Part shown: positions 3,354 to 61,000 of the stretch, piece after piece
Numbering within the stretch: the stretch's first letter is position 1
Layout: each line of letters starts with the position of its first letter
Assembly (NCBI GenBank): GCA_035403965.1
Contig: DAONGE010000001.1
Coordinates: forward strand, 11,475 to 75,474
Direction of reading: 5' to 3'
Length of the DNA stretch: 64,000 nt
Source of the DNA: Candidatus Omnitrophota bacterium
Lineage (GTDB): Bacteria; Omnitrophota; Gorgyraeia; Tantalellales; Tantalellaceae
Translations under genes and position numbers: made by a program
The notes under the pieces: model-generated
Told to the model about the DNA's origin: nothing
What the model saw: only the letters and a program-made list of their open reading frames with translations
The model's database searches: none

Positions 3354-3382
3354 GTTGACAAAAGAGAAAAGGCGCGATATAC
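3354..3382 (+). promoter_or_regulatory. sigma70-like promoter for the Rrf2-metY-cysK unit
   Basis: TTGACA (3354-3359), 17-nt spacer, TATACT (3377-3382). AGGAGG RBS at 3412-3417 precedes ATG 3424. Confidence 0.5.
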
Positions 3383-3423
3383 TCTACTATGTTGATAGGG
3401 ATTATAGTGAATAGGAGGCGAAG

Positions 3424-33900: not shown

Positions 33901-36900
33901 GGAAGGAATGTACGAAGATAGGATCCGGGATATTTTTGATAACGCCTATGATAAAGCGGCTTATTCAGCCGGATACAGGGCAGTGTCGGTATCTGATATC
34001 CGTCTTCCGCGGAAGGCGATGGTATCTGAGGATATGATGATGGCGATATGGTGGGCGGTCTTTTTTATCTCTCCGGTGCTGTCATGGATATTTTTTGAAT
34101 GGCATGACAGAAAAATAGATAAAGGGGAAAAGAAGTTCGAACAGGAAAGATTGGAGCGGTTGAGGCAAAGAAATAAGACTTTGGATCAGACCAAAGGGAA
34201 AGATAAAGAGGAAATTAATGGGGACGCTGATAAGTCTGATAAAGGGCCGTCAAGGCGAGATATATTGAAAATGGGTATTATGTTACCGTTCCTTATGATG
34301 GCTGAACGCGCCGGGGCCGGAGTCACTGAAAAAGATCTCGTTGAAAAGTTCCTGACTGATACTTTATCGAAGTGTGCGGTATCGCTTTTGAGAAAACCCG
34401 GTGATGATCGGGTGTTGCGTGCCGTTGTAAAGAAGATCAGATCTGGCGCGGAAAAGGGGAACGCGGAAATATTGAACGGCATAGCCGATATATTGGAAAC
34501 ATATAACGCGCTTTTGAACGCTGAAAGTCCCGAAGAAGACGAAAAACTAAATGAAAAAGTGAAAGCGCTGACCGTGGAGGTTAACGGTAGATTGTCCGAG
34601 ATAGGTTTATTCACGTTTATTGGGCTTGTCAGAGAGCCGGTTCCGGACGGACAAGGAAGGACAGGTATATATGTTAAATCTTTCAGACTGGAAGAAGCGT
34701 CCGAGTATTTGAAAGAGAAGATAGGAAATGAAAAGTTTTATCTTTTGAAGGGTATAGACACGACCCCGCTTATGGACACAAAAGGTTTTCACGACGAAAA
34801 ACTAGGGTATTCTGCTGTATTTCTTGACTTGGTGGAAAAAGAAGCGGACGCGGTATATGAAGAACTAGGCGGCGAGGATAGAAAAAATAGATCTTCGCTT
34901 GAGAGGGCGTTGGACAAAATACTTAAATGTGAGTTCGCTGGAGTGACGAGGAATGAAATAAAAGAAAAGATATTGAACGCGACGGTTTTGCATGAGTTGG
35001 CGCATATCCCTGATAGAGGGAAACTGGATGAGAACGGAAGCGTTCAGGAGATATACGGTTTACTCGCCGGTGTAACACAGGGAGACGCGCAATATTACGG
35101 GATATATACCCTGGCCAGAATGATAACCCCGGGAGATTTGCCTTTTATCCCGCATGATCTCGCGGCCAGGACTATTTTCGATGGGATGTTGAAGATCCTT
35201 CATTCTGAAGGTAGGGCCGGGGATGTGTCTTTTTCGACTGTGGACGCGGAAGGATTAGACGGGCTTATAAATTATTTATCGGGAATGTCGCGAAAGGACA
35301 TCCTTGATATCGTACAGAAAGTTGAAAACTCCAAAGATAAGGTATTGAGCGGGTCCCGCGTTGTTGCCGGAGCGGCAACAGGCGTAGGAATAACAATAAA
35401 AGACCGGTCAAATGATCCGCTAAAGAATAAAGGCGGGTTGCAGAAAACAGATCCGGGTCTGGAGTTTGATGTTACTTCTTACCAGGTCACGGGTGCGCAG
35501 TATAAAGACAGTATAGTTGTTCTTAGAAATGCCCCGCGGGATAAAAAACAGGTCGTTCCGTTAAAAGTTATACAGCCGTCCAAACTTGATCAGGCCGACA
35601 GACAGAAACTCGCCGGCAATATCCGGAAATGGCTGGAGTATAGAAAAGACATAACTTGGCCGGATGCGGTAGAGAATATCGCGGATCAACTCGAAAGATA
35701 TATAGGCCCTAACATATATTTTGCCGTAACGGATGACATGGAAGTGGAAGGATATATTAAAATCACAACCGTTGGGATGCAACAAATAGAGATAGCTCCG
35801 TGGAACCAGAAAAAACATGGCGATGAGAGAAGATTTTTGGGTGTGGGGAATCAATTGCTGGCGTTTATGGCCGTGAAGTTTTTCAAAGAGCAGGGGCTTG
35901 TGAGGATGTTAGCTCCGAACATGAACACAAAACGAGCTGTCGGAGAAGGGAATATCACTACGATAGATAACCCGCTGGATACCGTGCTTGAACGCGAAGG
36001 GCTTATAAATTTCCTTGATGGGCAGAAAGAGATATTAGAGCGGGTTATCCGGGATTATGCAGCCTCATTCCGGGTTAAAAATGACAATAGACCCCAAAAA
36101 GAGGGATCTTCCGTAAATACCGTGCGAAGTCGTAAAACGGCCGGTTCCGCCGCGCGGTATATATGCGTTCCTACCGTTAAGGAAGGTGAAGAATACCGTT
36201 CATTGACGCCTTTATATGAGATACGATCTGTGTCCGGCGAAAAAACGGAAAAAGAGGGACGGATGGTAAGAAAAGCTGTTCTTATCAGGAAAAGTCCCTA
36301 CCCTGTTTATCAGGAAGAGGTTGAAGGTTTTGTATTCAGAGACAGAGTTTATGCGGAAGAAAAAGTTACAAAATTTCATCGCGATATGCGTTATATGCTT
36401 AACAAAACCCCGGCCAAAATATCGGTTAAAAAAGTCATGGGAATAAGCGAATTGTTCGCGTTGTCAGGACTTCCTATCAGTAAAAATATAGTAAACGGTA
36501 TGATAACAGCCGGATATTTTGTGGATAGGGTCGGTTTTATGAAGGCTTGTAACGAAGAAGGGCTTTCGGCGCAACGTATAGTGAGAGAGGGTATATGCGA
36601 AGAGATGGAAAGAGGGCAGGATCTTGTCTATTCGGAAGTTCTTGCCGGTTTGGTAGATAATGTTCCGTCGGAATCTTCTTTTCTGGTTATGGACAGCGAG
36701 AGCCTGAACAAACCGTTTTCACGTTCGCAATATGGAGTTAGATACAATCTATTTACAAATATTATCATGCGGAATAAACCGGAAACGATAGCGTTCCGGA
36801 ACAAATATTTTGAGATAATGCGGGAACGTGACTATTCAGTTGCGCGGGGGATGGGGTTAGATCTCGCACCGGAAATTTTTACGAAGTATTTGCCTGATCT

Positions 36901-39059: not shown

Positions 39060-39147
39060 ATGCCGGATCATATCCACGATATTATTTCGATCGTAGGGCG
39101 GGGTTTCCCCGCCCAGAATACGTCGGGCGCGGAGACCGCGCCCCTAT
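39060..39147 (+). repeat. ~90-bp duplicated fragment of the Y1 transposase gene (HuH-motif codons + REP-like double hairpin)
   Basis: 39060-39147 is ~95% identical to 39502-39590 (ATGCCGGATCATATCCACGRTATTATTTCGATCGTAGGG..CGTCGGGCGCGGAGACCGCGCCCCTA). No RBS precedes it. Confidence 0.6.
39093..39147. repeat. REP-like element copy 1 (two hairpins: GGGCGGGG-TTT-CCCCGCCC and GGGCGCG-GAGAC-CGCGCCC)
   Basis: Perfect 8-bp and 7-bp GC stems read directly from the sequence. Confidence 0.65.
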
Positions 39148-39263
39148 GTTTAAATTGTTTGTGTATTTTTTTGATGCCACCGTCCGCGGGAACGCAAAAT
39201 AAAATTATAAAAATTGAACGAATTTGTCCCCAAAATGTGTCTATAAATATAAGGGGAATTAAT

Positions 39264-39788
39264 ATGGGCGAACCAATATATCCGGCCTTGCGACGGAGGT
39301 ACTCGTTGCGATTGAAGGGGTATGATTATTCTTCAATTGGGACATATTATGTGACCATTTGCGTCAAAGATCGCGAGAATATTTTTGGTGAGATCAGAAG
39401 AGATAAAATTATTCTTAATGAGAATGGGATAATTGTACGTGATTATTGGAACGATCTTAAAAAACATTTTTTAAATATCAAAATTGGTTCTTTTGTTATT
39501 ATGCCGGATCATATCCACGGTATTATTTCGATCGTAGGGGCGGGGTTTCCCCGCCCTGAATACGTCGGGCGCGGAGACCGCGCCCCTACGTTGGGAGATA
39601 TTGTCGCGTATTTTAAATATGGAACGACGAGGGATATAAATTTTAACAAAAAAACACCAGGTATGCACTTATGGCAGCGAAATTATTATGAACATATAAT
39701 TCGTAATGAATCGGAATTAAATGAGGTCCGGGAATACATAATTAATAACCCTCTGAAATCTGAGATTTTTCTCGATAAATTTATGTAA
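39264..39788 (+). CDS. tnpA: IS200-like / REP-associated Y1 (HuH) transposase, with an in-frame REP-encoded insertion
   Basis: YYVTICVKDREN, HuH motif IMPDHIHGII, C-terminal LWQRNYYEHIIRNESEL..YIINNP with the catalytic Tyr. A 17-aa insertion GAGFPRPEYVGRGDRAP sits between the HuH motif and the next helix and is encoded exactly by the REP hairpins. AAGGGGA RBS precedes ATG 39264. Confidence 0.75.
   Translation: MGEPIYPALRRRYSLRLKGYDYSSIGTYYVTICVKDRENIFGEIRRDKIILNENGIIVRDYWNDLKKHFLNIKIGSFVIMPDHIHGIISIVGAGFPRPEYVGRGDRAPTLGDIVAYFKYGTTRDINFNKKTPGMHLWQRNYYEHIIRNESELNEVREYIINNPLKSEIFLDKFM
39534..39590. repeat. REP-like element copy 2, located in-frame inside the transposase CDS
   Basis: GTAGGGGCGGGGTTTCCCCGCCCTGAATACGTCGGGCGCGGAGACCGCGCCCCTACG. 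Confidence 0.65.
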
Positions 39789-40044: not shown

Positions 40045-43000
40045 ATGTTATTACAATATAATATGAAGCGAAGAAGACCGTTTTTCAGCCTGGTTTCGAT
40101 CGCTGTGATTTTTAGTATGCTCATGTCCGATATCTCGTTCGCGCAAGACGCGATTCGGGATACGCTCGCGCCAAGCCTTGCCACAAAACCGATATGCAAA
40201 GTAGAAAAGAACGACGACGGTACTTTTGATATAACCACGAACAATGATGTTATCGAATATTGGGAAAATAAGACAGAAGATGATCTTGATGCAAAATCCC
40301 CGTTCGCCAGTGCGTTCCGAGAAAAATGGGCCATACGCGATATAGGTATGGTTGTCGCGCAGGCGCTTGGTCTGAATATCCCGAGCGGTACCGTAAAAGA
40401 ATTGATCAAAAAACATTTCAAAAACAGGAACGCGGAAAATCAGCTTATCCTGGAAGGATATGAAATCGACGGTATCAAAGAAAAATATTGCGGTGAAGAA
40501 ATTTCAGAGTATTTTGTACCGGTAAACAGAAACAGAGAATTGGCATTCTATTTAAAATTTTATTTAAATGGAGAAAAGAAGGCCGCGCCGTTCTGTCAGA
40601 CAAAAACTGAAAAAGGCGAAATGAAGAATGTCTACATGGATGTAGTGACGATAGATGAGGTCCAGACATTTTTTGAAGAAAAGAACTCTCCGGATGTACG
40701 TGTCGGCAAGCGGGATATGTTCTTTGTCCCTGATTTTGCGCCGGGCGTAGCTTTAAGGACAGCTATCTCGCGTGATCTGGAGTACAGATGTGGCATGATC
40801 AAAAAGTTCATTGAGATAAACGAAAATATCGGCGGCGAAAATATTAATGCCGAGAAATATAAAGAGATGAGAGATTTTTTAATTACAGGGATCGGTCATA
40901 TACTTAAGGCCGCGGAAAATGAGAACAAAAATGACGAAATGTGGGAACAGGATATTCAACTCGAGTTGAGCGAGTTTAACAAAAATATGACGAATAAATC
41001 CCTGGAGGGATTGTGTCAGGGGATGGAGAAAAAGGTCTCTGATCGTTTGAAAGCGTCGATCCGTGCGCTCAGCATATTGTATAGCGGCTTAGCGGGCGAA
41101 AATCATTCACGTAGCGCCGATATTAAAGAGTTGACGGATGTGATTAAAACGATTGAAATGCCGTCAAGTTTTGTGGATGTGGTCTTAAATGTGGACGCCA
41201 AAGCCAGGAACGTGAATGTTAACGAAGGCGAAATGTTCCGTATACTTGAAAATATTTTTAGGAACGCGCTTGCCGCGCAGTTGGAGAAAGCGGCTAATAT
41301 ACGGGATGACGTGGAACGCGCGGCTTACAGGGCCGTAATAAATATTGACGCGGTGGTGGATAGCGGCGAAGTCGTGATTAAGATAAAGGATAACGGTCCG
41401 GGGTTGCCGGAAGACGCTGAAAAGGCGTTCAGAGAAGGAAAACCGTTCACGACACACACAACAGGCGGCGGGCGCGGTATGCGAGCCGCTAAATATCTTG
41501 TTGAAAAGAACGGGGGAAAGATCGATGTCTTGTCGGAACGGGGTGAAGGTACCACGTTCACTGTTCGCTTGCCTTTGGGAGAAGACCCCAGAGTAAGGGC
41601 CAGATTGTTACATGATTTCGCTAATTTAGTACAGGGGATAGAAGGGGAAACATATATATGTTCTGAAATAACCAAAGATCCGGAGATCTTTGAAAGTGTG
41701 GAAAAGTCTGTAAAGGGATGCCTGACACTGCGTGATCCGAATTTGGACATCAAGAAAACTTTGGAGAATATTTACAGGGGGATGAATGAAGAAGTAATGC
41801 GAAGCATGACTGAATCCATAGGAAAGTATCTAGCGGACAAAAATATTTCTACAAATGATAGAGAAGAACTGAGGCAAAGTTTTGAGAGCCTCATAACGCT
41901 TATAAAGGCTGTTAAAAGGATAGCCGGATTTTATAGCGGGTTAGATACGGGAAAACGTCTTGTCAGATTGAATGAGATCTTATTGAGTTATCCGAAAAGG
42001 AAAAGCGGTCAAAAGCTCACGACCGATCTGAACGCCGGTGACATTGAGATATTCACGGACGAATGCGCGCTCGATCAGGTCGCAACTAATCTTTACAGGA
42101 ATGCCTTACAAGCTTCTGATGCGAATAGGGAAAATCATATTTCGGTCGGGACATCTCTCAGTGGGGACGGGAAATATGTTTATTTTTCCATAGAAGACAC
42201 CGGCATTGGCATCCCGCCTGAAAATTTAAGAAAAATATTCGAAGCGGGTTTTACGACGAAAGAAGATGGACATGGATTTGGTCTGGATATCGTGAAGGAT
42301 CTTGTTGAGACCCGTCTTGGCGGGACGATAAAGATTGAATCCGAGGTGGGGAAAGGTACAAAATTCATGGTTTGTTTACCGCTCGATCAGGAGCAGGAAA
42401 AACCAGGACGTTTTAGCCGGAAAGATGTTGTCATTGATCTTTCGAATAAAGCCGATTCTGAAGAGAGGCTTCAGGCTTTGCGTGCGATGATAGAAGAAAG
42501 GGTTGGGTCAAGGCAAAATAAAATAGTGACCGGACAGGAAGCAGTTCGCGAAGCAGATTGGCTTTCCGGAAGATTATGGGAGATAGCGAATTGCTCGGAC
42601 GAGTGGTTCAAGAAAAGTATGCCTATGCATGCAGTCGATGTCGTGAATATAACAAAACAATCGGACAATAACGCGTCGCCGGAACTTTTGATAGCCTCGA
42701 TGTTCCATGACGCCGACAGGGCTTTTGACGGATATTTTGTTCATCTAAAAGATATGCCGCCGTATGATAGCCCGTTGTATTCCGAATATCTTAAGCCGAT
42801 ACTTCACCCGCGAATGGCGGATGAGGTGATCCGGCCTTTGCTTGATCTTTTGGGGATAGAAAAAAATCTAGCCGATAAAGTGTCCATCCTGATACGGAAC
42901 CATGAGACCGGTATAAATGGAAATTCTTTGGATAAAGATAATCCGCTAGTTACGGAAGAACTTATCACAGATTCGGAAAAGCTTAAAAATGCCGACGCGA

Positions 43001-46000
43001 TAGCCGTATTGACCCCGTTTATGTTGATGGTCAGGTTTAATGAGGCAGATAGACGAGGGAAGATGGAAGAGTTTTATTTTGAAGTGAAACAGAAATATTC
43101 GCGTTGTTCTGATCAAGGGCGCGGCATAATAGATGGCCTTATAGAAGAAGGGAAAAAAGAATACGAGAACGATCCAACGTGGAGCGAAGTGTACGCAATA
43201 TTTTTGCGAGTTAAAGACGAAACCAGAGAAGAGGTTAAATTTGATATAGATAAAGATATCGAGCTATACGCTTTTGATTATGAGGAAACACTCGCCAAAA
43301 CAAAAAGCAAAATGTCGGATGAAATGCTGGCAGAGATTATTAAGAGGCTGGAAGCCGGCAGAAGATTCGCGGTGATAACAGGAGTTAACATATATTTTCT
43401 TCACAAGTATTTTGGGCAATACATTCCGAAAGAAATCAGAAAAAAATACAGAAAACAAATTATTTTTATGGGAGAACTCGGAACCGAGGTTGGCAGATAC
43501 GATGAAAACGGCGAATTATATCTGGACGAAAAGAACAGCGTGTCTTTAAGGCCGGAAATTAAAACCGGGATTGCCGGTGAAGTGTACAAGGCCTTGGAAA
43601 AACACGGCCTTGCAAATATTTCGGGGATATCGACAAGATTTAAAAAAGATACAGATCCTGCCGAATATCCAGCGGGGAAGTCGATAGAGATCGGGCTTGA
43701 AAAATACGGTACCGCCGTTGTGCGTTTTTGGGATAAGACATTACGCGGGCGCATGAAAGACATTGTGGAGGATCTTCGGGATGTGCTCGATAAAATGGGT
43801 TTAAAGGTAGCTGCGTCGAATTCCGCCATAGATATTTCCCCGATGGATAAAGGCGAGGCGCTTGATAAACTACGTGCGATCATCAAAGAGGAATCCGGAA
43901 AGGATATAGCGTACGAAAATATTCTTGTAGGCGGGGACAGTCAGAATGATTACGCGATGCTCGCGAAGCCGGGAGTAAAAGCCGTTTATTTCGGCAATTC
44001 CAAAAAAGCGGAGCTGCCGGAAGAGGTCGCAAAAAATGTATATATGTCCGAAACAAAAGGGCCGGAAGGGCTGGTTGGGTTATTCAGCGTCGGGATTTTT
44101 AATAATGTTAGAGAAGACCGGAAAACGCAAGAAAACTTATCGTTCGATGCAGTGAGGTCTTGGGAATGGGAACGGTTGATGTATGAATTCAGGGAAATGT
44201 TCGCGCAACACCGTGTAAGAGATTTTAACAGAAACCTTTTACGATATAGACAAGCCGTCGAGATGTACAATGCGGAATACGATCAGGGTGTTTACGAGGA
44301 TATGCTTCACAAGGGGAAAGGGCTTCGAGATGATGACAAGGAAATGGAGACAGCGCTTGAGCAAAAATACTTAGAAGATCTCTCTAAACTTCTTTCCTGC
44401 GCATTGCGGCGCGATGATAGCGATAATGTCGCAGAGTATCTTGCTGCTTTGATAAAAAGCGAAAAGGCGTCTTTACTGTCAGACGAGGCCAAGCTGTTCA
44501 TTAGATCGTTTCTTACCATATACTCGATGTCGCCCGAGAGAGGGAAAAAAGTCGGTGTTGTCATATCAATGTTCAACGAACAGAAACGGATGGGAAAAGA
44601 GGATTTCGTCAGAAAAAAGATCGAACAGATGGAAGAATTATTTGCCGTGAATCCGGGGCTTGATTGGGAGATGGTCTTTGTGGAAGACGGTGAGGAAAGA
44701 TCAAACGGTGAAAGTAAGAGCTCGGGTGAAATGGCGCTTGAAATACTTAGAAGTGAATATCAAAACCTGTTGGATTCAGGCAAAGTAAAAGTACTGTTTC
44801 TGAACAAAAAGATCAAAGATAATATCAGGGGAAGAAAAGGAAGTGGCATTATATACGGTCTTCGCAAGGCGCTGGACGACGGCGCGGATTATCTTGTCTA
44901 TACCGACGCTGATATTTCTTCACATCTTGGCCAAACCGGTATTTTGCTTGATCCGCTTGTTAAAGGTGACGCGCAGGTTACGATAGCATCACGGAGGATA
45001 AACGGCGACATAGTATTTAACCGTTCGCGCGGCGAGAAGATCAAAAGTATGGTCTACAATATCTTTGTTCGTTTGATACTTGGATTAAAAATAACAGATT
45101 CACAGACCGGATTCAAGGCTTTTACGCGGGAAGCACTTGAAAAAAGTCTTCCGCTTAAGGTGTTCCCGCCCGAAGGGTCGGACGGAAAAGAGTTTGAGGG
45201 AAATTTTGTTTACAATTTTTCATTCGATACCAATCTTCTTTGCCGTATAGACGATGTATTTTCGGATAGCGAAGAGACTGTTATCGCAGAAGTTCCCATA
45301 GTGTGGATAGGATCAAGGGAAGAAAGTACGGTCAGGCTTAAAGATGTTTTAATTATGCTTAGAGGTCTTTTTGAACAGTGGCGCATAAGGAATAGAACCG
45401 TTCAGATAGTGTCCAGTGATGAAGTGTCCCAGAAAGGCAATTACAAACTTCTGGCTATTTTAAAAGGAGACGAGATCGGGAAGTTGGAATATTCTCCCGA
45501 TATTAATGATGCGAATACCGTATGGCTTGGATGGATAGGGGTGGAGAATAAGAGGCATTCTGTGGGAGAACTGCTGATGCGGCGCTTTTTCGCGGAGTGC
45601 CGGGCAATGAAAAAAAACAAGGTTAAGTTATGGTGTGACAAAAACAATACATCGGCTGTCGTGTTTTATGAAGAAATATCCGAACGGCTTAACATCCCGA
45701 TGGAGATCAACGATGAAATAAGCAACGCCTTTCATCTGATAACTTACACGATTGGGGATGTTTATAAACTGTCCGGCCTTAACTCGGGTGCCGCTACGTC
45801 CGAGGTTCAGAAAGTAGAGGATCAAGGGGACAACGTTTTTAACCGTACGGGAAATGGTCTTATTTTTATCGGTGGCGCAACGTTAGCGGGCAATATTTTT
45901 CTTGGAGTTTTCGCGTATTTATATTTATCTGCACAGAAACAGGCGATAGTGGATTTTCTGTATGAGAAGAGCCGTGTGAAGAAATGGTACGCGAAACCCT

Positions 46001-49000
46001 GTCATTATTTATCCCGCTTTTTTGATATGGTTCTTTTAGATGTGGCCCGCTGTATCGCAATACTTGATAGAAAAGAAACTGTAAGTGTAAAGCTCGATAG
46101 TGCTGTTTCGGACGAACATAAAATGACATTGATGGCTTATTCGGGGAAAGAAAAGGCCGGGACTCTTAAATTTTCTCAGTCGAGTCATGCGCCAAATACA
46201 ATGTCCCTTGAGTGGTTGAACGTGACATATAAAAAGCAGGGTAAAGGCGTCGGAACGGCTCTTATGACGGAGTTTTTTAAAATCTGTTATAAATTGAAAA
46301 AGAAAAGAATAATACTGTGTTGCAAAAAGGATAACACGGGGGCAATAGCGTTTTATTACGAAATGGCCAGGCGATTCAACGCGAGAATTGATAAAAAAGA
46401 CATTACCATTAACGATGAGTACTATTTGATCGAGTATACATTTGATGACAGTAATAGAGCAATGCCTGCTTTTATTTGCCTTGGCGGCGCCATGACTTTT
46501 TGGAGCGATGTTTTTATAGCGGGGCTTGTATATTTATGGTTCTCCGCCCAGAAACAGGCGATAGCGGATTTTCTCTATGAAAAAAGCCGTATGAAGAAAT
46601 GGTACTCAAGTATTGCCCGCCATTTAGCCCGCTTTTTCGACATTGTCCTTTTAGACATGACGCAATACGCCGCTACAAGATACCTCGCCAAATCTTTGCT
46701 TATGGGGCCGGGGCTGACGATAAAGCCAATAGATAATGGAACCGTAGGTGCGCTCTCAATATCAGGAACGCCTGATGACGATATTGTGTATGTGCCGGAA
46801 AAATATAGAGAAAAACTCGCGGAAAAGGATATTTATCCGCAACGATATAGACATGTATTTATGGGGATGATCGATAGATTAAAATTAAATGACAATGAAA
46901 TAAATGAGCTTAAGAGTACGCTGGCGACGGTGGCGGGTAATATGCGCATATATAAAGATCCAATGGGAAGAATAGATATGATAATAGACGTGCTGAAAGA
47001 GAATAATATAGACGCAAATGGGGGAAGTGAACTCAAGAAACAATATCTGATAGTGGTGTATAGCATAGCTAGGCATGGGAAGAAAGGGAAAGTAGCGTTA
47101 GATGGGGTTATAAGATCGTTTAATGGAGCTGGAATAAAATATCAGGATATGACGGAAGAGCTTAAGATACAATATCTAACAGCGGTGTATGAGATAGCGA
47201 TGAAAGGCGAGAAAGGGAAAGAAGCGTTAGACGGTGTTATAAAATCGTTTAAGGGAGAAAGAATCGTTTACAAGGAGTTAACGGAAGAACTCAAGAAAAA
47301 ATATCTGATAGCGGTGTATAAGATAGCGATGAAAGGGGAGGAAGGGGAAAAAGCGTTAGGTGGAGTTATAGAATCGTTTAAGGAAGAGGGAATAGTATAT
47401 AAGGAATTAGAAACGGAAGAACTTAAGAAAACATATCTGATAGCGGTGTATGAGATAGCGAGGAAAGGGAAGGAAGGAAAAGACGCGTTAGACGGGGTTA
47501 TAGGATCGTTTAAGGGAGAAGGAATAGTGTATAAGGAGTTAACTAAAGACCTTAAAAAACAATATCTAACAGCGGTGTATAACATAGCGATGAAAGGGGA
47601 GGGGAATAAAAAGACGAAGGAAGATGGAGAAGAGGAAACAGTGTTAGACGGAGTTATAAAATCGTTTAAAAAGGAAGGTGGAATAGTATATAAGGAATTA
47701 GAAACGGAAGAACTCAAGAAACAATATCTGATAGCGATATATGAGATAGCGAGGAAAGGCCAATACGCGGTTGAGAACGTGGGGACGATAATAGATCTTC
47801 TTCGAGGGGAAGGTATTGAGTATAAAACCATGCGAAGGGATTCCGAGAAAAAAAGATATTTACGCTCTGTATACGTTCAGGCGCTTAAAAAAGGCAAAGA
47901 ATACGATGACGAATTTATCTTATATGTTATGAAAGGTTTTTGGGAATTGTACAGCGCAGAAAGGGAGCCGGCGGTTTTCGAGAGTATTGCAGCCAGTGGT
48001 AAAAAGTGGCGTGAGGTTGTTGATGCAGGAACGCCGAGAAGCATAGCCAAATCCACGGAATGGAAGGAAAGAGTAAAAACTGTATTAAATACCTTATCTG
48101 ATAGAGAGAGGGAGATAGCGGAAGCGTTGATGGAAACGGGATCGGCTGAAGATGCTGCAATAAAAGGATTTGACAGGAAAGAAATAGAAAAGGTAATGGA
48201 AAAACTCAGAGTAGCTTTTGCTGATATGAAAAATAAGCCAACGAGTTCCGCGTCCGCGGTTCTTTTAATGGGTGGTTCAACGTTAGCGGGCAATATTTTT
48301 CTTGGAGTTTTCGCGTATTTATATTTATCCGCCCAAAAACAGGCAATAGTGGATTTTCTGTATGAAAAAAGCCGTATGAAAAAATGGTATGCAGGTGTCG
48401 CCCGCCATTTAGCCCGCTTTTTTGATTTTATTCTTTTAGACATGACACGATACGCCGCTACAAGATACCTCGCTAAATCTTTGCTTATGGGCCCGGGGCT
48501 TACGATAAAAAAAACTGGTTCAGATGGGGACAGGTCTGGGATTGATTCCGGGACAGATCTGAGAGGGGAAACGGGGACAGGTCTGGGATCAGATTTGGAA
48601 ACGTCCCGTGATGTTGTCTTTGGTCTTGGAGAGGTAAGGCTGGCCTCGCTGGATGACGCATGGGTGATAGTGCAGCTTAAGCGCCTAATATCTGAAATGC
48701 CTTACGGTAGAGACTATAGGAGTATTATATATGATATGAGGGAAAGAAGATCGAATGACCGTATTTTTGTGTTTAAGGATAACTCCGGAGAAGTCGTCGG
48801 TTTTATTGAGGGAAGGTTTTTTCTTAATGCAAAGTCATGTTACATAGCAAACCTGGCGGTGCGCGAAGATATGCAGAAACGCGGAATAGGAAGGATTTTG
48901 TTCAATACGTTTCTTGATGAAATGTTGGATCTTGGTATAACTTCGGCTTCCGTGGCCGCGCGAAACGATGCGACCGCAAAGTTTGCGCTTGAGAGAGGTT

Positions 49001-52000
49001 TAAAATGTGAGGAATATTACAAGGGTTCGGATATACAAGGATATTATGTTGGGGATATTAATAAAGGCAATAAAGTCGGACAATATTTTAGTAAATCCCC
49101 GGCTTTTATTTTTGCCGGAGGATCAGCCTTGGCCGTAAATATTTTTAGCGGGGTATTCACATATCTTTATCTATCCGCACAAAAACAGGCGATAGTGGAT
49201 TTTCTTTATGAAAAAAGCCGTATGAAAAAATGGTATGCAGGTGTCGCCCGCCATTTAGCCCGCTTTTTTGATTCTATTCTTTTAGACATGACACGATACG
49301 CCGCCACAAGATACCTGGCCCAATCTTTGCTTATGTCGCCGGGGCTGACGATAAGACAAGTTGGTTCAGATGGGGACAGGTCTGAAAGGGAAATCGGGGA
49401 CAGGTCTGGGATTGATTCCGGGACAGGTCTAAGAGGGAAACCGGGGACAGGTCTGAGATCAGATTTGGAAACGTCCCGTGAGAGTGTTAATTGTGGTAGC
49501 GGATTCTTGGATTATGTTAAGGCGGATAATTTGGAGAGTGTTTTTTCGTACATGGGCGGATTAAAAAGTGCATCGAATATCGGGATAGATAGATTGATGT
49601 CCCGTTTAAGGTCTCCGTTTGCGAATATTAACGGAATTCTTAAAGAATACGCTGTCCAGGATGATCTGGCCGGCTCGCCTGAAGCATTAAAAACCCTTCT
49701 TGAAAAAATAAAGGAGCTGGACGAAATAACAAAAAAAGCGATGGAGGGTGTGTCTCCACACGAAATCAGGGTTAATGCTCAAAATGCTTTTGACGAACAG
49801 ACTGAAAAATATAAACGCATTCTTTATCCCGATACCGGAGAGTTGCCGATCCTTTTAAACGAAATACAGGCAATACTTTCAAAGTTTAATAATGAGCATG
49901 TCAGCGAATTAAAGGGTGAGATAGGGGGTGTACTTGAAAAATATGATGAGGTTTTTGGTGAAGAATCCGGGATATATACTCCGATTTCGGGTGTCATGCA
50001 TATGGAGTGGTGGCAAAAAGTTGCGCCGCATTTGTTACGCGGACAAGAGAATACAATATGGAAAGTCAGGGAAAGTTTTGGGAATGTTGCGGCAAGCGCC
50101 ATACTTGCCGAATTGAAATTGGCAGCGGGGTATAAACACGCAAAATTTACTGACAATGATAACGTTTTTAACATGAAAAATGCCACGCATCCTACAATGC
50201 GGTTTAAATCCGGATTTACCCCGGTCTCTTTTAAGGTCTCGAAATCAAAAAAGGTAACAATTATCAGCGGCTTAAATTCCGGCGGGAAAAGCGTAACCGT
50301 AAAAGCAGCCGGGATTATCGCTTTAATGGTTCAGGCGGGGATGCCCGTTCCGGCGGATGTTGAAATGGATAAAATGTTGTTTGGGGGTTTTAAAAAAGCC
50401 GAAGTAAAAGACGAAGATGTTTCCACAGGGCAGGGATCCAACATGTTGGCGGAGCTGGATGAAACTAAAAAACTTATGAACACGGTAAAACCAAATGAAT
50501 TTATTATTATCGACGATGATATTTTTGGCGGCAGCAGCGAACCGACTGTTGTTGCTTCGTGTTTCAATGCTTTTATGGAAAAGCTTGGTGCCTCGGGCGC
50601 GGTGGTGGTAGGGATAACGCATCATTTAGACGCGTTGCGGGCTTTAAAGAAAGAACATCCGGATGATTTCAATTTTTTATGTGTCAAAACCCGGCCCGGT
50701 AAAGACGGAGAGGAAGAGTCAGAATATGAATTGCAGGAAGGCATAGCCGACTCCAGCCAGGGATTGATCGAGGCGATCAGGATGAAATGGCCCGCTTCTA
50801 AACTTGCCATAAAATATTTCAATAAATTACGCGAGTGGAAAAATGAACCTGCGGTGGTTTGCAACAATATGCCGGCGCTAAAACCGGCGCCTTTAAGGCA
50901 AAGGGGATATTTTTGTTCAAGCGTCGAAAGGGACTTTTTACAACTTACTGATTTTTCCGGAAAATTAAGAAATACAGCCGTTTCTATTATGGGAGAGATA
51001 GCCGGCGATGTCTCCGGAGATTTTGTTGAGGATATTTATGCCAATCCGGAAACGGCTAATAGTAGTGAATGGAGGGAAGCTATAGAACTTTTGCGTACCA
51101 ATCCCGATGTTTTAGATAAGTTTACGTCTTTATTGAAAGAAAATTATAGAAGATGGCCGCAAAACATAAAATTTGAAGAGAGAATCCACAGATATATTAA
51201 TCCCGACAGCGATAAGATGACGCGCGAATTTTTACGATTGATAGCATTTTGCCGCACCAGCGGGATCACGATGCTGGAAAAAAGTGCCGGACGGATCAAC
51301 AGTTTTCTTTATGGTGATTTTAAAAGTGAAATAGTGAAATGGGTAAAAGCATGTGAAGAGATGATCAAATTGACCGAAAAAGAGGTTGGGAAGGAAAATG
51401 TAAAGTTTCGTTTGGGCGTTGATTTTATCGAAATGGTGAACGGGATGAACCGGATTATCGAAAAAGAGGATGAGTTTAATGAGCTTATGACAGGCCTTCT
51501 TTTTGAATATCAGTTTGAGGAAGGATCGGATTTAAATAAGATAAAGAACTTATTTGTTCAATCATTGAAAGAAAATCATGGTAGCGGTTATCTTTTCATG
51601 CAGGCTCGTACAATAAATAATATGATGGAAGAAAAAAACACGGGGCGTAAGTTTATCGAGAAGTTACAGACCAACGGGTTAAATGCGAGATTCCTGAGCA
51701 TCGATAAAGGGTTGATAACCAGAAAAGATGATAGGTCTCAAATAATGGTACAGTTTTGCAGAGATATGTCTGCCATGTGTACCCTGCGTGCGATGGTAGA
51801 TGTAGATGAAAATTGGCCATTCGCGAAAAAAGGCACAGAGGGAGAGATACGGATAAAAGGCGGATGGCATACAAGTCTTGAGGAAGATCCAAACAGGACC
51901 CCGAATAATGTCGATATTTCCGCATACGGCAAAAAGGGATCGCTTTCTATTTACACGGGTTTTAATACGGGAGGAAAAAGCACACTTGCAAAGATGATTG

Positions 52001-55000
52001 CGCAGATTGTGACACACGCTAAAATCGGATGGCCCGTGCCGGCCGAATATGCATCGATTGGAGATTTTTCTGATATACAGGTTGTTTCGGAATTGCTGAC
52101 GGATATAAAGGAAGAACAACGACAACGTAACGGAAAAGATGAGATCGGCGGCGCGCTTGATAGGGCGCTTCATCAAAGTTCGATGATAATACAGAACGCT
52201 ACGCCGAAAAGCCTGATCATTCTTGATGAACCGTTTTCCGGTTCTACCGAGCCTGAAGTGGCTGAGGCTCTTACCGCGGCTTTGGCTCAATCGCTGGTTG
52301 ATAGAGGCGCTACTGTAATACTTATTACGCATCTATTGGACACTATACCGGTTTTGGAAGGGGAAGTGGCAGGGACTCAGGTATTTCGCGCAAAAACTTT
52401 TGAGAAAGATGGGGCGTTATATCCGCGTTTTTCTTTTGAGCCCGGGATTGCGGTGTCGAGTCATGGATTTGAAGTGGCGAGAAAAATAGATTGGCCGGGG
52501 TATTCAAGGGCGCTTGAATATTTTAATGTTTTGAATAAAGAGGAAATGCAAAGAGAACGATCGCCGCGCGATCGGTCCGGTGCGGCAAGGGCGATCTTTC
52601 AGGAGCCTCGGGATTCGAAATATGATGGAATGAAAGGAAGAGAAATAAAAAGCGCGGAAAAGGACAGACGAAAACAGCTCAAGGAAGCAGAAAAAAAACG
52701 GTTATCCTCCGGGGAAGGAAATAAAAACGCCCCGGCGATTTTATATTTTGGCGCATCGACCTTAGAGCTAAATATCTTCACGGGTATTTTTTCATACACA
52801 GGGGCCGTACAACACGCTGAGAAGGTTTCCCATATAGACTTTCGGGACGATTACGGTGAATCATTACGTCGTCTTTGGAATTTTGGACCAAAAGGTGTAC
52901 CAACGGAAGAGTCCGTTTTAAGGCGCTTAGTTGTAAATTTAGCGTATGAGATGATTGTAGAACAGATACGTGCATTTGTGAAGACCAAGTATCCGGGTGC
53001 CGATATTGACAAGTTAGGTGTAAACGTCATGCTTTTTGGCAGCAGCGCTAAAGGATTATCGATAGAGACAAGCGATATTGATTTCGGTCTTTTCATAGAC
53101 GACACCGAGCTCGGAAGTGGCATAAAAGTAGATCCCGGATATAAATCAGCACTCGTGAAGATAGCTGTTTCTGCTTTGAATGAAGTTATAGATAAAAATG
53201 GGTTCAATGTTAAAAGGTTCAGTGTACAGTTAAAGAGGGTCAATGCCAGGGCCAATGATGTTATTATCGCCAGTCATATGCTTTCACGAGAATTTGGACA
53301 CAGAATATTCAGGGATTTAGCGAATATATTCTATATAAACTTTGGACCAATTGAAATCATGAGAAAAAAAGCTTTGCAAATAGTAATGAATTCCGCTAAC
53401 CCCGAAAAGACGTGGGAGAACGTGTGCAAATGGTGGAGTGGATATGCCAAAGTTATTGGCAATAAACACGAGTTAAGGGTTTCTTTAGACGAGATTGTGG
53501 AGGAATCTTTGCTTATATCTTTGCCGGACTTGAAAACAATGTGCAGTATCTACAATATAGAATATAGGTTACCAGCCGTTTCTGTCCAAGAGACTGAGAA
53601 AGGTGATATTTCTATAACTTATCCGGGTAAAGGCCTCAAAGTGCCACCATCGGATAAAGCGCCGGCGGTTCTTCTGATGGGTGGTTCGACGTTGGTGGGA
53701 AATATCTTTCTGGGAGTTTTCGCGTATTTATATTTATCCGCGCAAAAAGACTCGATAGTGGATTTTCTTTATGAAAAAAGCCGTATGAAAAAATGGTATG
53801 CAGGTGTCGCCCGCCATTTAGCCCGCTTTTTCGATTCTATTTTATTAGACATGACGCAATCCGCCGCTACAAGATACCTCGCCAACTCCCTGCTTATGGG
53901 GCCGGGGCTGACGATAAAGCCAATAGATAATGAACCCGTAGAGGCGATCTCAATATCGGGAAAGCCTGATGACGGGAAAGATATTGTATATGTGCCGGAA
54001 AAATATAGAGAAAAACTCGCGGAAAGAGATATCTATCCGCAACGATACAGACAGGTATTTAAGGGAATGATCGATAGATTAAAATTAAATGACAATGAAA
54101 TAAATGAGCTTAAGAGTACACTGGCGACAGTGGCGGGTACTATGTGCATATATAAAGATCCAATGGGAAGAATAGATATGATAATAGACGTATTGAAAGA
54201 GAATAATATCGACGAAAATGGGGGAAGTGAACTCAAGAAAAAATATCTGATAGCGGTGTACATGATAGCGAAGAAAGGGAAGGAAGGAAAAGAAGCGTTA
54301 GATGTGGTTATAGGATCGTTTAATGGAGCTGGAATAAAATATCAGGATATGACGGAAGAGCTTAAGAAACAATATCTGATAGCTGTGTACGAGATAGCGA
54401 TGAAAGGGAAAGAAGCGTTAGACGGTGTTATAAAATCGTTTAGGGGGGAGAGAATAGTGTACAAGGAGTTAACGGAAGAACTCAAGAAACAATATCTGAT
54501 AGCTGTGTACATGATAGCAAGGAAAGGGAAGGAAGGAAAAGACGCGTTAGACGGTGTTATAGAATTGTTTAAGAGAGAGGGAATAGTGTATAAGGAGTTA
54601 ACGGAAGAACTCAAGAAACAATATCTGATAGCGTTGTACGCGATAGCGAGGAAAGGGAAGGAAGGAAAAGACGCGCTAGACGGTGTTATACGATTGTTTA
54701 AGGAAGAGGGAATAGAATATAGCGAATTAACGGAAGACCTTAAGAAACAATATCTAATAGTGGTGTATGAGATCGCGATGAAAGGTCGATATGCGGTTGA
54801 GAATGTAGGAAAGATAATAGAGCTTCTTCGCGGGGAAGGTATTGAGTATAAAAATATGCAAAGGGATGCCGAGAAGAAAAACTATTTACGCGCTGTATAT
54901 GTTCAGGCGCTTAAAAAAGGCAAAGAATACGATGACGAATTTATATTATATATTTCGAAATATTTTTGGGAACTGTCCGGACATGAAAGAAAACCGGAGG

Positions 55001-58000
55001 TTCTCACGAGTGTCACGGAAACTGGTATCAAGTTGTTCAAAATGGTTGCCCCGGAAACTCCCAGAAGCATAGCCGAGTTTATGGAACTGACGGAAAGAGT
55101 TAAAAAGGCATTGGGTGGTTTGTCTGATGAAGAAAGAGAGATAGCGAAAGAATTGATGAACACGGGATCGGCTGAAGATGCTGCAATAAAAGGATTTGAC
55201 AGGAAAGAAATAGAAAAGGTAATGGAAAAACTCAGAGTAGCTTTTGCCGACATGAGAAATGGAACAAGAGGTTCCGCGCCCGCGGTTCTTCTGATAGGTG
55301 GTTCGACGTTGATGAAAGCAGGAGAAGCGCCTGATAAAGAAAAAAGCCTCGTAGGCATTGATCCGACTTGGGATAAAGAAAAGACAATAAAATATTTAGA
55401 ATCCCTGATTCAGAAAACGGAATTAGAAGAAAAAGACATAGAATTTCTAAAGACCTTAACGGAATTTTTACAATGTAAGGATAATAGCCTGATTAGTTTT
55501 ATAAATCAGAATGGACGACTGGACATAGCGGCGAATATTGATTCAATAAACGTTTTAAAATATTTGGTTATAAATTTTGACCCAACTGTTTTTGATGTGT
55601 CGCAGTCTGAAGAAATGTCAAGGCGTTATAAAGAAATAGCCCGACATATGTCTACTGGAGCGTATGAGCATCAGTTGTCACATTGCCAGAGGACTTTTGA
55701 GGTGCTAAAGGAGCTGTGGAGCAGTCTGGAGAAAAAGGGAATAAAAAACACAGAACTTGAAAATCTTGTTGCGGCGGGCAGAAATATCGAAGCAGATTTT
55801 ATGTTGCTTAGACATGCTCTTGGAAATTATGAATATTTCAAAGATGGGATCTTGTCCATATGGATCATAAATCTTGCAAGACGGGAGATTTATAGGATAT
55901 TCAAATTTAATCAGGAGGCTTTAGAATTTTTAAGGAAGTATTTGAACGAAGGAGAACAATACGATGATCGGGATGAGGGGGAGTGGGAAAAATACTTTAT
56001 AAGTTTTGCTGAATTTGGGCTGGGTGAAGCCGCAGGTTTTATTCTAGACATAGATCAGTGGAAGAAACAAGGGTTGGATTCTTATTTAGGGAAAAGTACT
56101 ATAGGAGATCTAGTTAGTTTATTTGAATCCGCTGTAATTAAAAAAGCCGGTCATGATTTTAAATTTTCATCCTATGAGGAAACGGATATCAATGAGCTTG
56201 ATACAGTTGGTATATCTATAACAGACCTGGAATATGTGGCAGAAAATCTTGCTGATAACTCTTGCGGGGCCAAGGACACATCGAGACCATTTAAGATAAA
56301 TTTAAAATTTTCAAATGAGATACGTAATAGACAAAAATATGTTCGCATTGAATTTACAGATACCGGAAAAGGTATGGCACCAGAAGTTTTAGCCAGCGTG
56401 AGATCGGGCGGAGGTTTTACGACAAAAGGTGCTTTTGGACATGGCAAGGGTATTCCTATAGTCTTTGAGATAATAAAGAATGGCGGAGGTTTTTTAGAGA
56501 TCGAATCTGAAGAAGGCAAAGGAACAACTTTTATAATAGGTATCCCGATAACAGTTTCATATGGGACTGTTTTAGGAGAGACAGGAGTAACCGGGACACT
56601 TCCCGCTTCAGATCCGGAAACGTCCCAAGGTGGAAAAACTGCTTCTGCGGTTATTTTTGCGGGTGGGTCGACATTAATCGGAAATATTTTTATCGCTCTT
56701 TACAGCTATTTGTATTTATCCGTTCAAAAAGACGCAATAGTGGATTTTCTTTATGAAAAAAGCCGGATGAAGAAATGGTATTCAGGTCTTGCCCGCCATT
56801 TAGCCCGCTTTTTTGATTTTATTCTTTTAGACATGACGCAATCCGCCGCCACAAGATACCTTGCCAAATCTTTGCTTATGGGCCCGGGGCTTACGATACG
56901 GCCGGTAGAACCAGATGTGGACAGGTCTGAGAGGGAAAACGGGGACAGGTCTGGGATTGATTCCGGGACAGGTCTGGGATCAGATTTGGAAACGTCCCCA
57001 TATGTACCCGGGGCTGTCCCCAAAGTGCCAAGCTTTATGTTAAGCGCGAGAGACATTTTTGAAAGTATTTCGCGGATGAGGGACGATATCACGGATGCCG
57101 CGATGATTGATGAGATCGGAGTAAAAGAAGGCGACAGGATTTTATGCGTTGGGATAGGGTCGTATTGTAATTGTCCGGTTGCCGGGGCGATAAAAGGCGC
57201 CAATGTGGATATTGTTCAGCCGTCTTCATATGAAGGGGTCGAACAGACCCGCGAGCTAATAAAAGCGATAGATATTCTGAGACAGAAGATAATTTCCAAA
57301 TATGGAACGGATCTTATCGGGGAGAGGATCGATACCGAAAGTTATCGAGGCATGGCCGAAGAAGTTGATCTCCATAATAGGACTTATACTGTCGCGATAC
57401 TCCCAAATATTCTGGATGACCCGGCGCGGTCTAAAAATAAGCAAAGCGCAAAATTAAGGGACGTTATATTGAACTCTCTTAGTGACGAAGCCACTATCTT
57501 AATTTCCGTGTTAGGCGGACGGACGGACGAATACGCGTTCGCTTTTGCGGATTACGCCAGAGGTAAAGGATACAAAGTTGAAGTGGGAAGCAAATATACT
57601 TCGGATAATGTTTACAGGGTTCTAAAAGTGACAAGGGTAAATGCGGAATTAGAAAAAGAGAAGGGACCGGAAGTAAGCCTTGAGCGCGAGAGAAAACTAA
57701 AACGCATAACGCGGTTGGTCGAAAATTATTTCGACGATTGGGCAAAGAGTGAATGGCGCGAAATTTTAGATATATTGAATTATTTGGGAGAAAAGGGATC
57801 CATAAGCCCGTCTCAGAAAGAGGAGATATTCGAGAAAATAAAAGTGTTGGTCGAGAATATTTTCAGCCCAAACAAGATTCCGAGAGAATTCTTTGATTAT
57901 GAGGGAGAGGAAAACGTTGCTAAACTTATTGATTTCATGATGAACATAAAAGATGAACATCTCGGAAGCTTAAGATCCTTAAGGGAAGACCTTGTAAAGA

Positions 58001-61000
58001 TCATTCCTCACGATCATATGCTTGTTTCGTCGCTGGACGGATTGATTGAGAAAGTTGAAAAATTATTTAATGAAGTCGAATCCGTGCGTAAGGAAATATT
58101 CTTATCAGGTATGCCTTCCGAAGGGGGACCGTACAATAAAGCCCCGGCTATTTTTTCCCTGGGCGCATCGACCTTAGCGGGAAACATCTTTCTGGGAGTT
58201 TTTACGTACTTATATTTATCCGCCCAGAAACAGGCGATAGTGGATTTTCTGTATGAAAAAAGCCGGATGAAAAAATGGTATTCAGGTCTTGCCCGCCATT
58301 TAGCCCGCTTTTTCGATTCGATTCTTTTAGACATGACACGATACGCTGCCACAAGATACCTTGCGAAATCCCTGCTTAACGGTCCGGCGGATATGATACG
58401 GCCGGTTGACGGGCCGTTATTCCCCGGGTTCCCTGATGGGGAAAAAGGCAGAAATTATCAAGGGATAGATGTAATTGCCCGGTTACAGATCCTTGCCGGA
58501 GGCAATGATAGTGAGGGGCTGGTAAGAGAGTTGAATAAAATCGGGCCTGACAGGGTGCGTAATCTTATGGGTTCCGGGGATACGTCAAGATCCACCGGTT
58601 TTATGATACTTATGGCGCAGATATGTGAGATCTTGGTGAAGAGTGGCGATTTGACTCGGCTGAATAATGAAGTACGGCGTATCGTTGAACAAAAAGAACG
58701 CGACTTCGCAAGGGACGCAATAGTTGTTTCATTAGAAAGAGCGTCGGAAAAGCAATCGGCTACTTATTCGGATCCCCGCCGATCGGCGCGGCGTGACGGC
58801 AAAACCAGTGTGACGCGGCGAACTCAAGGCGAAGGAGAGAGCTCTTCACCGCCTGCGGCACCTCGCGATGACTTGGGATCGGGAGCGTCCCCGGGTGATG
58901 CGGAACGGGAAGAGTTTTTGAGAAAAAATAATTCCGCGTTTTCCCAGATGATGGATGTATTAGATGATTATCACCATGAACGGAGCATAACCAGATATTT
59001 TCTTGCAGGTAGCATGTCCCGCGGGACTTTTGGTGTTCCGCCGAAAGATATGGATATAGCGGTTTCCTTCAGGCTATCCCGTCAGGCGGAAGAAGTGGAT
59101 GTATATCAACGTCTTTACGAAGAAATCGAAACTATCTCGAAAGAGACAGGTATAAGTTTTCATATTATTCCTTTACCGATAGGCCATGTGTTCAATATAA
59201 CGGACAATTCGATAGAACCTACCGGGGAAGTCCTGGGGGGGAGTTATCGTCCGGCTATGGCATCATTGATAAACCCCGTGGATTATAGACTTATTGAAAT
59301 AAGCCGTGCGTACAGAGAAACGGCCGGAGCCGATTTCTTTGCGCAATTATTCTTAAAAATTAAAACATATAATGAAAATGTCCCTCGCGATGACGATCGT
59401 GCCACCCAAGGCGCGGCTGAGAAAAATATCAATGGTTCAGAAACGCTGTTCCCCGGCGCCGGCCCCGGAGCGGCGAGCCTTAACGGCCCGGAATTCACAC
59501 GTAAAATAAAAGTCAGGGCGCCGCGATTTTTGGCGGGGTGGACCAGAGGCCGCGTGGAAAAGGCCATAACTACAGGCCTTACCTATGATGAAGCCGTAGC
59601 GTGGCGTGAATGGAAGTTACGAACGAATAAACGTTTTCCATCGGGGTTCTGGCAATCGAGACAGACAGTTATTAATTACACGCTGGCTACGTTGGATAGT
59701 ATCTCGGGGTTTAAACAGGCAAGGGAGAGCGGCGATATCTCCACAACGGCCAAATTGTTGCGTTCGGAATTAAAAAGATACAATCTTGGTTATAAGAAAT
59801 TTTTCGTAGAGCGTGGGCGGATGAACGCTTTACTGGATAATAATTACGATGGGATACTTTCCGAACCTAATAGGGTATCATCGCTTATCGGACTTGCCGT
59901 GCCGGGACTGATAGATATGAAAAATAAGGACGCGATAAGTCCTGTCGAAGTAGAACCTAATTATTGGGAAAATGAGGAAAACGCCAGATATCATATCCTT
60001 GCGGCTTTGGATAACGGTGTGCCGGGTTTTGCCGATGCCCGCGCCAGACACGATATTAAAGCTATGGCGGGGTTATATCGTGAATATGTTATGGGATATG
60101 GATCAAAAACCGGAAAATATGATGACGGTCAGGTCGCGTTCTTTTGCGAAGTGGGAGAGCTTTTAGGGCTTATAAGCCATGAGAGAAAATATCTGGATAA
60201 AAAGGGAAGCCCGGCGGCTGTTTTACGTTTTGCCATACCGGAGCTTGTTGATCAGAACGATCCCGACGCCATAAGGTTGACTGACGTCGAAAGAAAAGTC
60301 GCGGTAGTGGGTTCTGACAGGAAATATGAAGAAAAATTGATGGAGTATATAATCAAACATTCGGTGGATGGTCGTAGCGGGAAAGAATTATACGAGAATA
60401 ATCCCATGTTAAGTTCCCAGCTTAGTTATGAAGAACGCGCGGATATTTACCGGGCTATACTTTCACGGGATACGCTGAAGCCGTGGGAATGGGCGGCTTG
60501 CGCGTATATATGGTGTTGTGAAGCCAGGGACAGGTTCTTGGCTTCAGACATACTGGAAAACCCGTTAACTATCGAAGAATGTCATGGCGATAAAAAAGTG
60601 AACAAGGTGATACATGATCTTATATTCAACCATAAATTTCGGATAGACTCCGGGAATACTGAGACCCTATTTGGCGTGTTATTCTCCTCGTCTTTAAGAG
60701 TGCATAATATGCCCGAAGGGGTTGGGCCGGACGTCGTATACGCCAATATTCAAAGGGCAAGGGGTTTGGTCCAGGGAGAGAGCGATCATATCATGGATTT
60801 GCGGGCGTATGCCGGATCACATCTATGGTTCACGTCCCCGGCTATGTTGGATCTTTTTTATGGAGCGGATGGGATAGGTGGAGAGGCATATGCGAACGCC
60901 AGGACTATTATCCCCAGAGAGATATTCACCCCTGAGCTTATGGCGCGCTTCAATGAGATATACGCATCGTGTATTTATCGGATCGAAATGCTGAACGGTA

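Follow-up and report, generated by a model that had tools for sequence, protein, structure and literature searches.

The DNA analyzed in this work, hereafter called the window, is a stretch of 64,000 nucleotides (nt) from a Candidatus Omnitrophota bacterium (positions 11,475 to 75,474 of contig DAONGE010000001.1, assembly GCA_035403965.1). It is chromosome-like bacterial DNA whose genes include those for MgtE, Cys/Met pyridoxal phosphate (PLP) enzymes, a PAS hybrid histidine kinase, carB and a photolyase, and it contains two giant open reading frames (ORFs), g1 and g2 (Table 1). The analysis concerns g2, in which a cassette with an array of tandem repeats is present in two copies, termed modules A and B.

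By exact-sequence look-up the g2 protein is identical to NCBI entry HPS19383.1, which belongs to a metagenome-assembled genome (MAG) assigned to the phylum Candidatus Omnitrophota by its depositor's label. The same protein is also encoded on a 171.6-kb contig of the Joint Genome Institute (JGI). In Pfam, g2 matches HATPase_c (three times), a HAD/S6PP domain (S6PP/Hydrolase_3), Glycos_transf_2 (GT2), GNAT (Acetyltransf_1, three times), MutS_V (twice), NTP_transf_2 and a PTS-HPr-like domain. The enzyme domains are set apart by seven hydrophobic separators of about 90 amino acids (aa) each, and a Kyte-Doolittle scan revealed an N-terminal hydrophobic signal followed by seven internal hydrophobic helices, one per separator. 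g2 is a multi-enzyme membrane protein of a kind already described for Omnitrophota.

Table 1. Coordinates of the giant genes and of the elements of g2 within the window
Feature	Position	Strand	Length and remarks
Giant ORF g1	18998-38977		6,659 aa
Giant ORF g2	40045-62208	+	7,387 aa, intact; signal peptide; beads-on-a-string layout; 22 kb open throughout
Separator upstream of module A	46465-46725	+	hydrophobic helix, then KQAI.DFLYEKSRMKKWY...RYLAKSLLMGPGLTIK; most divergent of the seven
Module A, longer cassette copy	46705-48276	+	524 aa
Module A, degenerate N-cap unit	46897-47028	+	EINELKSTLATVAG...IDMIIDVLKENNIDANGGS; N-cap also in relatives P0007 and P0008
Module A, ELKKQYL units A1-A6	47029-47844	+	43, 43, 44, 43, 54 and 45 aa
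Unit A5, extra, without counterpart in module B	47548-47709	+	11-aa loop insertion, GNKKTKEDGEEET region 47602-47640
Module A, degenerate C-cap unit A7	47845-47976	+	EKKRYLRSVYVQALKKGKEYDDEF...
Module A, C-terminal helical domain	47977-48276	+	ends in three-helix element 48094-48237, LSDREREIAEALMETGSAEDAAIKGFDRKEIEKVMEKLRVAF
Separator downstream of module A	48247-48510	+	complete
Separator upstream of module B	53656-53919	+	
Module B, shorter cassette copy	53899-55308	+	470 aa
Stretch modelled with AlphaFold2	54067-55002	+	N-cap, B1-B5 and C-cap; two helices in each unit (14 in total) and one helical turn of 3 residues per unit
Module B, degenerate N-cap unit	54097-54228	+	helices H9-23/H32-45 in the module-B model
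Module B, ELKKQYL units B1-B5	54229-54870	+	43, 40, 43, 43 and 45 aa; 3-aa loop deletion in B2
Module B, degenerate C-cap unit	54871-55002	+	
Truncated separator remnant	55273-55311	+	SAPAVLLIGGSTL; first ~12 residues; sharp 3' breakpoint; Kyte-Doolittle score 0.88, below transmembrane
Other separators of g2	45850-46113, 49093-49356, 56635-56901, 58138-58401		

The duplicated cassette and its boundaries

When module A (46705-48276) was used as the query in tblastn, exactly one other copy was found in the window, at 53899-55302 (E = 0). At the DNA level the similarity of the two copies starts at about 46,550 and 53,744, respectively, and ends sharply at 48,283 and 55,309, with an identity of 83-98% for each interval of 60 nt. 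The DNA alignment has one gap of 162 nt, which is exactly the repeat unit A5. The encoded proteins are 77% identical across 555 aligned residues if the separator is included and 80% identical for the module alone. Self-comparison of both giant proteins revealed no internal duplication that exceeds the A/B pair in length or similarity; older internal duplications comprise a GNAT cassette (36%), MutS (29%), HATPase (30-40%) and the separators. An intragenic segmental duplication had been proposed in a preliminary description of the window. It is genuine, with paralogous cassettes at 46.55-48.28 and 53.74-55.31 kb, and its elements lie where that description had placed them.

The boundaries of the cassette are related to the separators, which are 59-90% identical to one another. 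Both duplicated segments had been described as starting with a separator. A separator is indeed present in front of each module, but it was probably not part of the same duplication event, as the N-terminal halves of the two are about 55% identical with a rate of synonymous substitutions per site (dS) of 0.9. The separator upstream of module B is nearer to other separators than to that of module A and is 91% identical to the one at 48280. Since the separators in front of A and B do not form a closest pair, the 5' breakpoint is located in or just after the separator. A second truncated remnant, in addition to the one at the 3' end of module B, was observed at ~52729-52810 (aa 4229-4255). It comprises the N-terminal hydrophobic part only and has a Kyte-Doolittle score of 1.35, which is below the transmembrane threshold used. 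Both remnants look like scars of cassette rearrangements. Furthermore, tandem repeats of 23-24 nt (GGGACAGGTCTGGGA...) encoding linkers rich in Gly, Asp, Ser and Arg (GDRSGIDSGTGLRG...) directly follow three of the separators (48527-48589, 49372-49458 and 56919-56980).

The three-helix element at the C-terminus of the cassette (LSDREREIAEALMETGSAEDAAIKGFDRKEIEKVMEKLRVAF) has a sequence pattern that recalls a helix-turn-helix (HTH), for which database searches gave no support. Its assignment as a sigma-70 region-4 or LuxR-type HTH was dropped, as the sole matches in its favor were to sigma70-ECF (E 0.041) and the CheF C-terminal domain (E 0.38).

The region is rich in repeats (seven separators and two arrays) and its source is a metagenome assembly, as would suit a short-read artefact in which a single-copy cassette was placed twice or two strains were merged. 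We consider such an artefact extremely improbable. The copies are diverged by about 14% in their nucleotides, with several indels and substitutions biased to synonymous sites, and each copy has different unique flanks inside the continuously open 22-kb ORF. The NCBI and JGI assemblies moreover agree base for base over both copies, the JGI contig Ga0116247_10000086, the sole additional assembly found, being identical to the window across 25.9 kb including both arrays, save for 12 nt elsewhere in g2. A divergence of about 14% also makes it unlikely that the assembler confused the two copies with each other. A fragmented MAG of the same population (HNX... pieces) had been considered as a sign of repeat-induced misassembly. 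This was rejected, as g2 breaks at non-repeat positions there. The 12-nt replacement (51965-51976) coincides exactly with the Walker-A motif (GFNTGGKST) in the second MutS_V ATPase, and the JGI version destroys this motif. Either an error of assembly or genuine variation could account for the difference.

Some features around the cassettes should also be mentioned. An ORF between the two giant genes (39060-39788) has a weak match to an IS200-like Y1 transposase (E 5e-7, with no single stretch above threshold) and is also found on the JGI contig. g1 contains its own, different family of internal repeat segments, which are 50-65% identical (aa 1614-1694, 2040-2180, 3248-3369 and 4094-4196) and presumably correspond to what had been called 'separator A' in the preliminary description. 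Neither the separator nor the repeat module of g2 was found in g1. No Rfam match was obtained within 38.9-64 kb, and the antisense ORFs over the arrays (47268-47831, 47877-48443 and 54903-55358) did not match Pfam either; they probably arise as a side effect of the high purine content of the sense strand.

Repeat arrays and the family to which they belong

Tandem Repeats Finder detected arrays at 47029-47601 (score 685) and 54229-54785 (score 613), both with a period of 129 nt and 80-81% matches. The array units carry the motif "ELKKQYLIAVYxIAxKGK" and range from 40 to 54 aa. Tandem arrays in both copies had been reported before with a unit of 42 aa or 126 nt; the arrays were recovered, but the modal unit is 43 aa or 129 nt. 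The reported difference in unit number, six against five, is correct for the ELKKQYL units. If the caps are included, there are eight hairpins in module A and seven in module B.

Units at corresponding positions of the two copies are 89% (A1-B1), 89% (A2-B2), 88% (A4-B3), 84% (A6-B5) and 83% (A7-B6) identical in their nucleotides. Within one array the units are 74-88% identical (differences given as 11-25%), and none are near-identical. The nearest unit to the extra unit A5 is A3 (87% nt identity), and a one-codon insertion of 3 nt ('ELETE') is common to both.

An exhaustive HMMER search with a profile of the module against 1.84 billion representative proteins gave 12 matches, all of them through the repeat region. 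The hmmsearch E-values were 1.8e-44 for P0002, 4.5e-40 for P0003, 3.2e-37 for P0004, 3e-15 for P0005 and 1e-14 for P0006, and six further matches were weaker. Reading the sequences of the relatives directly, we found arrays of 2-7 units of the form [ED]LKKQ[YW]LIAVYx[VI]AMKGK with a period of 40-46 aa. The cassette units therefore belong to a rare, unnamed repeat family, members of which occur in about 11 further clusters of proteins from uncultured bacteria. Three of the relatives carry a source label: one is from Omnitrophota, one from a Planctomycetales MAG and one from a MAG labelled, dubiously, as Actinomycetes. Several relatives are small proteins, and four complete ones (P0003, P0005/P0019, P0006 and P0010) have signal-peptide-like N-termini. 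In P0004 the array is fused to a shikimate-dehydrogenase-like domain.

Scans with the family alignment added two further loci among the GTDB species genomes (the contigs of P0002 and P0003) and one among the JGI metagenomes. In the latter (L008, Ga0137411_1376884, 3150-3740), recognizable units (…VIAAYAVAMKGRS…, MAMKGEKAPGVLRDVIRAYEEA…) are interrupted, with their parts in different frames and on different strands. The locus, either a decayed, frameshifted copy or a poor assembly, was not used. Module-specific peptides gave no match among genome and metagenome contigs. Word-index homology searches with the module, the unit alignment and the separator alignment returned nothing, but they also missed g2's own protein and are not evidence of absence. 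No credible match for the leader, the array, the C-terminal domain or the separator was found in Pfam (at permissive E-values), NCBIfam or the sequences of the PDB. Matches to 'Focal_AT', 'T3SS_CopN_3rd' and designed armadillo proteins were discarded, as each adds up weak matches to successive repeats and has no stretch that is significant by itself.

The neighbourhoods of the stand-alone relatives (L001, L002 and L004) show no conserved gene context, save for the tandem paralogues P0010 and P0006. The genes of these two (711 and 593 aa) directly follow each other in L002 (1915-5828; GCA_040960315.1, JBFOMO010001275.1), the stop codon of one overlapping with the start codon of the next. The pair adjoins an rpoN (sigma-54) gene and is followed downstream by a BatA/BatD-VWA-MoxR cluster. 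A short 'LAP'-type motif follows the signal peptide of both giant proteins, with DTLAPSL in g2 (40120-40190, aa ~26-48) and STLSPTL in g1 (19070-19150, aa ~25-50). Similar motifs are present in the stand-alone proteins P0003 (SYLAPS), P0006 and P0010 (LWALAP) and P0005 (STLRPP). The motif may be a common sorting or processing signal of the giant proteins and their stand-alone relatives.

Predicted fold and possible function of the arrays

The module-B array was modelled with AlphaFold2 from an alignment of 11 sequences. The model has a mean predicted local distance difference test score (pLDDT) of 76.6, with 83-93 in the core, and a predicted template modelling score (pTM) of 0.73; designed helical repeats give scores in the same range. 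The preliminary description had supposed that the unit is a small helical hairpin and the array a solenoid, and the two helices predicted per unit agree with this. According to the model, the cassette is an all-helical module, the core of which is an alpha-solenoid of roughly 43-aa helix-loop-helix units.

Conservation was mapped along the unit. Positions 6-11 and 13-14 of helix A have an entropy of at most 1.5 bits, while position 12, at 3.08 bits, is the highest in the unit. Because helix A is conserved at nearly every position, it is likely to be buried on all sides, position 12 excepted. The other variable positions form stripes on helix A (15/19) and helix B (26/29/30/33) and vary both between units and between copies. 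The arrays of g2 are close to charge-neutral, with a net charge of +4/+5, and that of P0004 has a net charge of -7. We infer that the array forms a rigid membrane-proximal binding or scaffold domain beside the enzyme domains and that the exposed variable stripe (12, 15, 19; 26, 29, 30, 33) would be a binding surface for a protein or polymer partner. Divergence of this stripe after the duplication would give the giant protein two related, non-identical docking surfaces.

In its predicted architecture the array resembles HEAT and Armadillo repeats, with units of ~40-45 aa, each an antiparallel helix pair plus a short extra turn, stacked into a solenoid. However, no HEAT*, Arm or related Pfam model matched the array at E <= 5 or the module at E <= 0.01, and the ELKKQ[YW]LIAVYxVAMKGK signature is unrelated to the HEAT or ARM consensus.

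A second comparison concerns modular binders of nucleic acids or other polymers of the mTERF or TALE type. In such an arrangement each unit would contact one monomer, position 12 would determine specificity and the C-terminal element would act as an HTH. The mTERF motif consists of two helices plus a short turn, like the modelled unit. Position 12 is the most variable column inside an otherwise invariant helix, comparable to the one hypervariable position in the conserved unit of the TALE-like proteins (BurrH, AvrBs3). The C-terminal part gave the weak sigma70-ECF match mentioned above, and MutS_V and nucleotidyltransferase domains are present in the same protein. We nevertheless regard this function as doubtful. 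The units of 43 aa are longer than those of the mTERF and TALE-like proteins (about 30-35 aa; TALE 33-35) and share no sequence similarity with them, and the array neither matches the mTERF profile (PF02536) nor has motifs of ~30 aa. The variable residue lies within helix A, whereas TALEs have their hypervariable di-residue in the loop between the helices. The arrays are not basic, the HTH likeness failed every test, and the signal peptides of the stand-alone relatives suggest an extracytoplasmic location. Neither family was recovered by Foldseek. In a broader form, the units would represent a new code-like class of polymer recognition, analogous to TALE or mTERF proteins: with position 12 and the residues around it in the exposed stripe, each unit would read a single monomer, either of nucleic acid or of a glycan of the cell wall. 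The array would be attached to the membrane of a nanobacterium living as a predator or episymbiont, and its two copies would have different targets. This we consider an unlikely, speculative extension.

History of the duplication and its place among the long proteins of Omnitrophota

Between modules A and B dS is 0.37 and the ratio of nonsynonymous (dN) to synonymous substitutions is 0.33 overall and 0.24-0.40 in every sub-segment, so that the substitutions are concentrated at synonymous sites. This pattern strongly indicates that purifying selection acts on both copies and that both are translated. dS is distributed as a mosaic: most of the module has a value of about 0.2, whereas the segment 47929-48108 has one of about 1.0. 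The latter segment is the linker between the C-cap and the C-terminal three-helix element (aligned with 54955-55134 of module B); here dN is 0.3-0.5, and dS of the flanks is 0.1-0.2. The mosaic suggests gene conversion between older copies, although uneven constraint may be another source.

The array is older than the duplication of the cassette, because units at the edges of one array find their best match at the corresponding edge of the other. At the time of copying it must have had at least five units plus the caps. The closeness of A5 to A3 points to a duplication of an A3-like unit within the array of copy A, followed by the 11-aa loop insertion. Slippage or unequal recombination, which had been put forward to explain the different unit numbers, is plausible in that A5 is nearest to A3 and has an insertion in common with it. 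However, A3 and A5 differ by 13% and the array units by 11-25% of their nucleotides, with no near-perfect repeats among them. The gain of the extra unit is thus an old event and not recent slippage. In the sequence of events that these data strongly suggest, a cassette with a pre-formed array was copied within the giant gene. Slippage or unequal recombination within the array of copy A then produced A5 out of a unit resembling A3, and small loop indels came after this gain. Gene conversion between the copies would have occurred later, as the mosaic of dS suggests.

This bears on the proposal that the arrays are actively hypervariable in length, like contingency-type repeats, with slippage generating strain-variable unit numbers that tune the length of a spacer. 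The unit numbers of six and five in the paralogous copies, the loop indels inside the units and the range of 2-7 units in family members of other organisms are in line with this proposal. Contingency-type coding repeats, however, have near-identical DNA units, which the g2 arrays do not: even the extra unit is 13% away from its closest relative. The arrays are identical in two assemblies of one population, and dN/dS across the repeats is 0.29, arguing that each unit is conserved. Active length variation is therefore, in our view, very unlikely.

Taken together, modules A and B represent an old duplication of a cassette in a membrane-associated, multi-enzyme giant protein. We consider the interpretation as a whole, with an all-helical cassette ~460-520 aa long, a solenoid core and a role in binding or as a scaffold, to be probable. 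Several points weigh against parts of this interpretation. No significant match to any characterized repeat was obtained in sequence searches, nor by Foldseek against the PDB. For the module as a whole, a first AlphaFold2 model reached a pLDDT of only 50.6, leaving the N-terminal leader and the C-terminal domain structurally undefined. The variable stripe could result from relaxed constraint on exposed residues and not from binding specificity. Finally, all seven separators have five to six Lys/Arg in the 20-residue stretch that follows the hydrophobic helix, with fewer ahead of the helix. Because this charge bias is the same in all of them, an arrangement in which successive separators simply cross the membrane in opposite directions would violate the positive-inside rule at every other copy, and the modules may lie on either side of the membrane. 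Topology was initially argued from counting transmembrane helices, which was abandoned in view of this common asymmetry. Alternatives to an alternating topology are a monotopic anchor or processing into N-anchored pieces.

Long proteins of Omnitrophota have been described with a signal peptide and scattered transmembrane helices, a HATPase/GNAT/HAD/HD/methyltransferase 'module 1', a multi-enzyme class and old, diverged intragenic repeats (10.64898/2026.06.07.730766; 10.1101/2023.11.21.568195). Repeated domains that arose by ancient duplication and then diverged are the rule among them, being present in 65% of the long proteins (Nielsen & Lui 2026, 10.64898/2026.06.07.730766), and helical-repeat scaffolds of the HEAT and TPR types are common (West-Roberts et al. 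2023, 10.1101/2023.11.21.568195; 10.64898/2026.06.07.730766). g2 is like these very long, 'Archaeovorin'-type or multi-enzyme proteins in its phylum, its signal peptide and transmembrane helices, its enzyme repertoire of the HATPase_c/GNAT/HAD/GT/methyltransferase type and its intragenic repeats. With 7,387 aa it is below both cut-offs of the surveys, at least 10 and at least 30 thousand amino acids (kAA), and is thus a smaller relative and not a catalogued 'giant'. Most full-length examples of the class contain SecA_DEAD or a C39 peptidase, whereas g2 has no match to these at E <= 0.01. The repeat of g2 is not HEAT or TPR by any profile and would count as 'Pfam-dark' in the Omnitrophota catalogues.

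The duplication itself is ordinary for long genes of Omnitrophota, and the current picture of their giant proteins is unchanged by our results. What is new, on a small scale, is the repeat family, which has no name and is very rare, and the fact that it also occurs in small proteins that are tractable. g2 provides a clean, dated case of how giant genes of Omnitrophota grow, by the copying of whole cassettes with breakpoints in or beside separators, followed by gain and loss of units and probable gene conversion. About 1,000 'dark' residues of g2 are now assigned to a definable helical-repeat family. The small relatives with signal peptides are easier to express than a protein of 7,387 aa and could show what the array region binds.

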